From the IMG/VR virus record IMGVR_UViG_2939127364_000001: DNA of 64,000 nt; one strand, written 5' to 3'. Under the pieces are notes generated by a model. That model was not told the DNA's origin. It saw nothing but the letters and a program-made list of their open reading frames with translations, and searched no databases. Each line of letters begins with the position of its first letter. The first letter of the stretch is position 1. The stretch is from a virus (lineage: Duplodnaviria; Heunggongvirae; Uroviricota; Caudoviricetes). Positions 9,301-10,469 of the stretch are shown piece after piece. A program made the translations under genes and the position numbers.

Positions 9301-10014
9301 ATGAAATTTGTTAAAAAAGCTTTAACGTTTATAGCTGTTATTTTAATCTTTAAAGCTGTATTTTACTTTTTTTACAAAGTCAATCGGTACGACAATAAGA
9401 ATCTGTTAACAGAGAGTTCGTCTGTACAGACCTCGCACACAGAAAGAACCACATCCTCTGCACTGCCTGCACCAGGCTATCATAGGTATGTTATAGGATA
9501 CGATATAAGTGTTGAGTTGCCTGAAAAATGGTCTTTATTGTCTCATACTGAAATCAGTGAGATAAAGAATAAATCTGCTACTATCGCGGGTTCTCCAAGC
9601 TCCACAACACTTGCAGCAAACGCTAACAAAGATGCCAAATTTAATGATGGCATTTTTAGAGCAAGCATCACTGATGCTAATTTCACTTCTGACGATTTAA
9701 AGTCGGCAAGCCCGGCTGAGTTGGACTCTGTTTGCAAGGAGATAAGCAATAATATGAAGGTGTCCTTGCCGAAGATAGGGGCACGTTTAGCAAATGAAGC
9801 AAAATGTTCAATCTCAAAAATATCCGGCAAAGATGCTTTTTTGATTAATTATCAGCGTATAAATGCAGATAGTAATACTGTGTGGGATGTTTCTATCTAT
9901 CAGGTTCCCATTAATGGGAAGTCGTTTATATTTACAGCATCGCGCAGTACAGATGCACGTAAGGAAACCATAGAAGAACAAGAGCATATCCTTAACAGTA
10001 TTAAATGGGATTGA
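9301..10014 (+). CDS. Hypothetical membrane-anchored protein (AT-rich orphan gene)
   Basis: ATG at 9301 immediately after IS2 end; N-terminal transmembrane helix (ALTFIAVILIFKAVFYFFY); strongly AT-rich codon usage unlike neighbours; followed by terminator. Confidence 0.5.
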   Translation: MKFVKKALTFIAVILIFKAVFYFFYKVNRYDNKNLLTESSSVQTSHTERTTSSALPAPGYHRYVIGYDISVELPEKWSLLSHTEISEIKNKSATIAGSPSSTTLAANANKDAKFNDGIFRASITDANFTSDDLKSASPAELDSVCKEISNNMKVSLPKIGARLANEAKCSISKISGKDAFLINYQRINADSNTVWDVSIYQVPINGKSFIFTASRSTDARKETIEEQEHILNSIKWD

Positions 10015-10022
10015 TTCTAAGG

Positions 10023-10053
10023 AAAGCCTACTTAACAAGTGGGCTTTTTTATT
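10023..10053 (+). terminator. Rho-independent terminator
   Basis: 11-bp stem AAAGCCTACTT / AAGTGGGCTTT followed by TTTTTTATT. Confidence 0.65.
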
Positions 10054-10163
10054 CTGGTTCCGCTGACTAATAAATTTATCAGCAGTAATGATGCGACTTC
10101 ATTCTTCCTGAATATGCAGATCATTTTCGATCTTCCACAGATCTATGAATCGCCACGGATAAT

Positions 10164-10335
10164 TTAGACACTTCCGAGCCGTTGATAATACTGGTTTTCA
10201 TATTCTGTCGGTGACATCTGATCGCTGGAACCATGCCGACGCTTACTGTTATAAAACATTTCGATGTAATCAAAAATATCGCTGCGGGCTTCTTCCCGCG
10301 TTCCGTAGATCTTTTTCTTTATCCGTTCGCGTTTC
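10164..10335 (-). pseudogene. IS3-family transposase C-terminal remnant
   Basis: Minus-strand frame ...WLKRERIKKKIYGTREEARSDIFDYIEMFYNSKRRHGSSDQMSPTEYENQYYQRLGSV-stop, typical of the C-terminus of IS3-family OrfB; no intact upstream transposase. Confidence 0.5.
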
Positions 10336-10469
10336 AACCAGCAAACAGTAGATGAAAACTACAGATATACCTGTAGCCACTGCCATCAGATAGAGTTTGA
10401 TCATGTGTTTTCCTATGTGGCTATTGTGTGTAGATGATAAGTAGGTGCTTATATATTTTCAAGGTATAA

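Follow-up and report, generated by a model that had tools for sequence, protein, structure and literature searches.

Where does a single AT-rich gene, lodged between insertion sequences (IS) on a phage-plasmid, come from, and what might its product do? The locus in question lies in a stretch of Caudoviricetes DNA of 64,000 nucleotides (nt; IMG/VR record IMGVR_UViG_2939127364_000001), referred to here as the window, and is built around an open reading frame (ORF) of 237 amino acids (aa). A first-pass annotation, made from the letters alone, had described this ORF as an orphan membrane-protein gene trapped between IS2, a strong terminator and an IS3-family transposase remnant, and had suggested superinfection exclusion, abortive infection or surface modification as its role. 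The ORF and all of the flanking elements so described are present, with IS2 on the left and the terminator and transposase remnant on the right (Table 1). The account that we find most reasonable is that the gene is a moron of lambdoid prophages, that its product is predicted to hold a PsbP/Mog1-fold domain in the periplasm by an uncleaved transmembrane (TM) helix, and that its function is, more tentatively, a protective one.

Origin of the gene in a prophage nin region

The gene, its terminator and a short downstream spacer together form a fragment of a lambdoid nin region, from the interval between ninB and rusA. By blastn this fragment is 98.7% identical to locus L006, a CPS-53-like prophage remnant adjoining dsdC, and 91.6% identical to loci L002-L005, P22-like E. 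coli prophages in which the gene lies between ninB and rusA; the proteins of these loci, at 99% and 87% identity, are the only close relatives. Homology between plasmid and prophages is confined to 9299/9300-10145, with none outside, and downstream it stops at the start of the second IS end, which begins TGAATCGCC. The locus was rightly seen as foreign single-gene cargo bounded by IS ends, its origin being a moron slot of a prophage. The ninB and rusA flanks of the prophages are themselves 95-98% identical to sequenced phages (mEp043, HK542, HK022 and Salmonella P22-likes), in which the interval is filled by other genes, among them a methyltransferase, ninE/F/X, HNH and roi. Judged on this comparison, the gene is one alternative occupant of the variable ninB-rusA slot, and its position there, its low GC content and its own terminator, which is kept in the prophage copies, mark it as a prophage moron. 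In prophages L002 and L006 the ATG is preceded by a promoter-like TTGCAA-17 nt-TTAAAT, unreported by a consensus scan, and by a GAGG Shine-Dalgarno (SD) sequence.

The cassette is now part of an E. coli phage-plasmid of the SSU5-like type, in an accessory hot-spot of that element. Plasmids of the IncFIB type from animal E. coli, ~112 kb long, match the window at 100% identity (e.g. pYLMB53a, NZ_CP073940), and they share their backbone with the phage-plasmids related to SSU5 (Salmonella phage SSU5 itself and Escherichia phages CMS-2020a and Cyrano). The left-hand element, which we take to be IS2 from its terminal sequence, has full-length matches in 4058 of the 5426 complete E. coli genomes in RefSeq, where it is annotated as an IS3 family transposase, and its final base is the base directly 5' of the ATG. 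The transposase end on the right matches rve_2 (E 3.9e-12) and transpos_IS3 (E 2.4e-12), and the same remnant is also found in related phage-plasmids without the gene. A composite transposon was considered and rejected, because the two sides carry different elements, IS2 on the left and a truncated IS3-family element on the right, and no 5-bp target duplication surrounds IS2 (left GACTT, right ATGAA). More probably, recombination between IS copies brought the cassette into the plasmid. The nin-region origin, the loss of the native promoter and ribosome-binding site to IS2 and the non-composite nature of the arrangement all go beyond what had been described for this locus.

Table 1. Coordinates of the cassette, its flanks and neighbouring features in the window
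Feature	Coordinates	Strand	Remarks
Lambdoid nin-region fragment (ninB-rusA interval)	9301..10145	+	845 bp; gene and terminator, then 95 bp of spacer
Gene (237 aa)	9301..10014	+	ATG 9301; stop 10012-10014
Intrinsic terminator of cassette	10020..10050	+	14-bp stem followed by a T-run; RNAfold dG -15.9 kcal/mol
Complete IS2-type element	7970..9300	+	1331 bp; two overlapping frames, orfA and orfB; orfB stop 9287-9289
Second IS3-family element, terminal part	10146..10338	-	193 bp; last 57 aa of transposase; truncated on the backbone side
Fimbrial chaperone-usher operon	2800-7737	+	major subunit, chaperone, 828-aa usher, 339-aa low-GC adhesin-like subunit
3' part of tRNA-Ser gene region, then IS1 end	7812-7969		tRNA part 95-97% identical to chromosomal E. 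coli tRNA-Ser loci
44-aa ORF	10270-10404	-	~22-residue hydrophobic N-terminal part in backbone; remainder enters IS3 remnant
Backbone RecA homologue	10495-12834	-	split by intein with LAGLIDADG homing endonuclease

A real gene in a small sequence family

The gene has a GC content of 37.7% (34.5% at third codon positions), as against 47.1% in the window, 53.2% in IS2 and 47-48% in the backbone, and only 1.3% of 714-bp windows are equally AT-rich; the AT-rich composition that had been noted is confirmed. Comparison of the plasmid and prophage alleles by the Nei-Gojobori method gives ratios of nonsynonymous to synonymous substitution of 0.14-0.26 for the domain, 0.17-0.21 for the TM segment and 0.57 for the linker, a pattern of purifying selection which indicates that the ORF is a real gene. 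A listed 246-aa version of the ORF is an artefact whose GTG start lies inside IS2. A conserved ORF that could serve as a partner gene was found neither in the 131-bp tail nor opposite the gene on the other strand, and Rfam and ARAGORN report no RNA gene in the region. The database annotation of the product is that of a hypothetical protein (WP_025670475).

To call the protein an orphan is nearly right. A word-indexed protein search returns only two clusters, of near-identical proteins, and HMMER, run exhaustively over 1.84 billion cluster representatives, yields a small family of 40 proteins at E <= 1e-3 (6 at E <= 1e-30), most of them 200-260 aa long. Neither NCBIfam, PHROG and PADLOC nor Pfam above threshold gives a match for the protein, and the family profile finds only chance matches among Protein Data Bank (PDB) sequences. 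The one hint from Pfam is PsbP_2 (PF18933), at 16.1 bits and E 0.011, below the 27-bit gathering threshold, which matches five of the 40 family members at E < 0.1 (best E 6e-4). The GTDB species representatives include a single distant relative, in Rahnella, and none that is close; a description of the family was not found in the literature searched. We likewise found no housekeeping homologue, the kind of relative that would have spoken against the first reading of this gene.

Two features divide the family. Cys145 and Cys169 occur together in 14 of the 40 sequences and are both absent from the other 26, with neither ever found alone. Most of the 14 also have an N-terminal TM helix that bears an invariant Lys18 in mid-helix, while the remaining 26, which lack both cysteines, begin with N-termini that, read by eye from the sequences, resemble cleavable signal peptides. 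Among the close TM-anchored relatives (P0002-P0012) both Lys18 (codon 9352-9354) and Phe21 are invariant, which is unusual for a simple anchor. In certain distant members (P0037, P0021, P0011 and P0030) the domain is fused to other modules, namely N-terminal ankyrin repeats (in a protein of 691 aa), a C-terminal multi-TM region or other C-terminal extensions; the multi-TM region of one of them has a weak PADLOC match to PDC-M18B (E 3e-4).

Predicted fold and topology

Structure prediction, which had been suggested as a check when the locus was first described, gives a PsbP/Mog1 fold. The AlphaFold2 (AF2) model built from the 40-sequence alignment has a mean predicted local distance difference test score (pLDDT) of 89.2, while a single-sequence model with pLDDT 47 was discarded. 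It consists of a helix over residues 2-30, a disordered stretch (pLDDT < 50 over 34-50) and a compact alpha/beta domain that takes up the rest of the chain from residue 60 on and superposes on PsbP/Mog1 as an antiparallel beta-sheet sandwiched by helices. Foldseek assigns PsbP with probability 1.0 and target-normalised TM-scores of 0.56-0.68, and the weak PsbP_2 match in Pfam agrees with this result. The structural neighbours, with their scores, are cyanobacterial PsbP (2xb3; 13.1), plant and algal PsbP and the PNSL subunits of photosynthetic NDH (10.8-12.3), BT_1490 (11.1), a Jonesia protein (3lyd; 10.8), Mtc28 (10.6), the immunity protein TplEi of type VI secretion systems (T6SS; 10.1), EagT6/PA0094 and LpqN (both 9.6), Tsi3 (8.7), DcrB (8.5) and Mog1 (8.0). 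The BFVD library of viral structures yields three matches at E < 1e-3, all to proteins from uncultured phages; two are annotated as lipoproteins, and one of these as a 'host cell surface-exposed lipoprotein'. On the strength of the model, the domain belongs to the PsbP/Mog1 structural superfamily, a scaffold that in bacteria serves mainly in extracytoplasmic protein binding. The protein thus has a known fold but belongs to a new sequence family, outside any named one, and its gene travels as a moron of prophages.

The polypeptide can be divided into a cytoplasmic MKFVKK, a TM helix at about residues 7-30 that contains Lys18, a disordered Ser/Thr-rich tether (31-58) and the PsbP/Mog1-fold domain (59-237). 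There is a single hydrophobic segment, at residues 7-25, with a maximum Kyte-Doolittle value of 2.19 over 19 residues (other windows <=1.6), which together with the AF2 helix upholds the single N-terminal membrane anchor proposed at the outset. The Ser/Thr/Asn-richness that had been ascribed to the whole extracytoplasmic domain is a property of the tether, where these residues make up 46%, but the domain itself is only mildly so (26% over the 237 aa). The predicted topology is that of a type II bitopic inner-membrane protein, N-in and C-out, with ~6 cytoplasmic residues and a periplasmic domain of ~180 residues. A periplasmic location is predicted from the signal-anchor, from the signal-peptide-like N-termini of relatives and from the co-occurring cysteine pair; the all-or-none occurrence of Cys145 and Cys169, together with those N-termini, fits an exported domain with a subfamily-specific disulfide, and a Cys145-Cys169 disulfide is probable.

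Other identities were considered for the protein and set aside. It is not a lipoprotein, as it has no lipobox and its first 140 residues contain no Cys, and a cleavable signal peptide is unlikely, as the only Ala-containing site has Phe at -3 and Lys at -2. A spanin or holin would require another genomic position and another fold.

A model for function

The function that we consider most plausible is a protective one, either exclusion or immunity, a proposal drawn from fold, topology and context which we advance tentatively, with our doubts still slightly the heavier. The tethered periplasmic domain would capture or block a protein that enters the periplasm or the inner membrane from outside, and capture of the incoming protein would leave the cell carrying the element protected. 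With neither a cytoplasmic output domain nor a catalytic fold the protein would have to act by binding only, whether in the periplasm or inside the membrane, and since the gene stands alone and is carried by very different mobile elements, a protective binder is the most economical reading. The version placed first is superinfection exclusion, with a protein of the incoming phage as the putative target, be it a DNA-ejection, a tape-measure or a muralytic one. The protein would block this target at the inner membrane, as T4 Sp and Imm and HK97 gp15 do. We rank exclusion first, as a possible answer that nevertheless remains doubtful when taken by itself. That Lys18 is conserved within the TM helix is a hint that the protein touches some other membrane protein. 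The two other roles that had been offered for the gene, abortive infection and surface modification, are unlikely given the prediction of only ~6 cytoplasmic residues, of no enzyme-like or catalytic fold and of a scaffold given to protein binding, and both were rejected.

TM-anchored relatives were found in a range of surroundings. One relative lies on an IncH-like plasmid backbone (H-NS, Hha, Ter) in Enterobacter and E. coli, 3' of a gene for an Mrr-like nuclease; one lies between the transfer modules of an MPF_G-type integrative and conjugative element (ICE); and one lies on an IncF plasmid of K. variicola, in a region that is rich in IS and also carries SIR2, AbiJ-NTD4 and ATPase genes. Further relatives are found directly 3' of a UvrD-type helicase gene, adjoining an Xre-RES toxin-antitoxin pair, on an element that also encodes OLD-type nuclease, ResIII, SNase and UmuC, and, in Kosakonia, ~0.8 kb from a cdiA-cdiI locus in convergent orientation. 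Most of these contexts are accessory or defence-rich parts of mobile elements, and no conserved partner gene recurs across them.

The PsbP-fold neighbours that are immunity proteins raise a second variant of the protective binder, in which an orphan immunity protein would neutralise a periplasm-acting toxin of competitors, be it a T6SS muramidase or lipase, a contact-dependent inhibition (CDI) toxin or a colicin, and so give its host a competitive advantage. We rank this second and regard it as unlikely. No T6SS effector is adjacent in the ~11 contexts examined, and in those other than Kosakonia no effector gene at all adjoins the gene; in Kosakonia it runs convergently towards the cdi operon and lies outside it; and PsbP proper is a better structural match than any immunity protein. 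The presence of DcrB and LpqN among the neighbours likewise brings in a helper of envelope homeostasis, acting in lipoprotein or lipid trafficking or on some other inner-membrane machine, in which case the gene would be a fitness factor of the mobile element and not a defence gene. This ranks third and appears very improbable to us, given that the protein has no lipobox and no DUF1795/DcrB sequence match, and that the family is rare, patchy and almost always found on mobile elements, a distribution not typical of housekeeping helpers.

Several observations weigh against the account that we favour. The protein has no similarity to a characterised exclusion, abortive-infection, immunity or defence protein in Pfam, NCBIfam, PHROG or PADLOC. 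The PsbP/Mog1 fold is a generalist scaffold whose nearest structural neighbours are photosystem subunits, so that the fold alone does not point to exclusion, and the lack of an adjacent cognate toxin in most contexts argues against classical immunity. The Rahnella relative sits among ordinary transporter genes. A tblastn search of 50,697 deposited phage records gave no match, and the gene is on no complete E. coli chromosome of the 5426 RefSeq genomes, from which it follows that the prophage form is rare. Finally, with IS2 abutting the ATG and the native promoter and SD gone, expression from the plasmid is uncertain; the plasmid copy may be poorly expressed and persist only through clonal inheritance of its junction.

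With these points in the balance we still prefer the protective binder. Its most far-reaching form, which we offer as speculative and hold to be doubtful, is that the protein is the founding member of an undescribed single-gene protective family on prophages, ICEs and plasmids, in which a PsbP-fold domain tethered to the inner membrane by a TM helix with a conserved Lys would capture an invading protein in the periplasm and block phage genome entry or another envelope-crossing attack. Should the protective role be true, the few stand-alone periplasmic exclusion and immunity proteins would gain a new fold class, and one and the same cassette would be seen to pass among prophages of the lambdoid kind, ICEs, conjugative plasmids and phage-plasmids. 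For now it is a well-characterised hypothetical protein, and nothing that we see here is mechanistically unprecedented.

Distribution and expression of the plasmid copy

Among the complete RefSeq genomes of E. coli the gene is carried by seven plasmids, in copies that are 99.7-100% identical. In a larger assembly collection the exact protein is indexed in 392 blocks, and all ten of the places listed are the same phage-plasmid module; a search of IMG/VR returns one contig only, a 106-kb uncultivated virus genome that is probably of the same phage-plasmid type. The junction that runs from IS2 through the gene and the IS3 remnant to the intein-bearing recA is identical in all seven plasmids and in the ten listed places. 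The DNA to the left of IS2 differs from plasmid to plasmid, with a fimbrial operon here, SNF2/WYL genes in one and a helicase and a restriction-enzyme gene in another.

These data, and the way in which IS2 meets the gene, bear on a further explanation, which is that the plasmid copy is a silent passenger, an intact relic of an IS-mediated rearrangement that deleted its promoter and kept by the clonal junction from IS2 to recA. The abutment of IS2 on the ATG, the missing target duplication around IS2 and the constancy of the junction next to variable left-hand DNA are all as this explanation would have them, and the near-identity of the plasmid copies leaves little time depth for selection to show. 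Against it, the ORF is intact in hundreds of assemblies, with truncated variants existing only as a minority, and the right end of IS2 has brought in an AGGGG (9288-9292), 8 nt 5' of the ATG, in place of the native promoter and SD, with the orfB stop codon 11 nt 5' of the ATG. These two signals make expression by read-through possible and allow coupling, and expression from the plasmid would need read-through of the IS2 transposase transcript with this SD-like AGGGG as the start signal. On balance we think it somewhat unlikely that the plasmid copy is a mere passenger, and that explanation, which concerns the plasmid copy only, would fit with whatever function the prophage copy has. As an observation in its own right, a captured gene has here received from the IS2 end (9287-9303) a stand-in for its ribosome-binding site and, possibly, translational coupling. 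The locus is also a clean case of a prophage moron brought, most likely by IS-mediated recombination, into the accessory hot-spot of a phage-plasmid of the SSU5-like type, one widespread among livestock E. coli.

Neighbouring features of the phage-plasmid

Upstream of IS2, the fimbrial operon lies between an IS1 and a tRNA/IS1/IS2 junction and is present in some, not all, of the gene-bearing plasmids. At this junction the 3' part of the tRNA-Ser gene region is followed by a 54-58-bp end of IS1 that is truncated by IS2, and the tRNA part and the IS1 end suggest that the operon was imported from a chromosome, where it stood beside a tRNA gene. To the right, the 44-aa ORF resembles a small membrane peptide of the backbone that was cut by IS insertion, and beyond it the RecA homologue matches Pfam RecA, Intein_splicing and LAGLIDADG_3. 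In two loci from draft assemblies (L028 and L030) the phage-plasmid module is contiguous with chromosomal rpsT-ribF-ileS or folB across a copy of IS1, which suggests either IS1-mediated cointegration of phage-plasmid and chromosome or an assembly artefact.

Comparison with known systems

The gene shares the ninB-rusA interval with the known morons and variable genes of lambdoid nin regions (ninD/E/F/X, roi, methyltransferases and HNH), none of which is homologous to it, and it alone among them is predicted to be exported. As to fold, the nearest relatives are those of the PsbP/CyanoP/Mog1 superfamily (Pfam PsbP, PsbP_2 and DUF1795), from which the protein described here is set apart by a score below the PsbP_2 gathering value (16.1 as against 27 bits) and by the lack of a PDB sequence match, as well as by being tethered through an uncleaved TM helix and encoded on mobile elements of Enterobacteriaceae with no link to photosynthesis. 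The T6SS immunity proteins Tsi3 and TplEi/Tli4 share its predicted fold but not its sequence, and there is no adjacent effector gene; in addition the protein is TM-anchored where these are lipoproteins or secreted, and it is prophage-borne. DcrB (DUF1795) differs in being a chromosomal lipoprotein with a lipobox, whereas the present protein is TM-anchored, has no lipobox and no detectable sequence similarity to it, and gives no match to the DUF1795 profile.

The closest likeness in genetic terms is to the stand-alone exclusion proteins of phages, T4 Sp and Imm, HK97 gp15, P22 SieA and TP-J34 Ltp. There is no sequence or family match to any of these, and the likeness lies in the gene and the predicted topology. 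Nevertheless all are small, membrane-anchored phage proteins that face the periplasm or the cell surface and are encoded by morons, as the protein described here is predicted to be, and the genetic logic, here of a low-GC gene with its own terminator and a promoter-like site, is shared between them.
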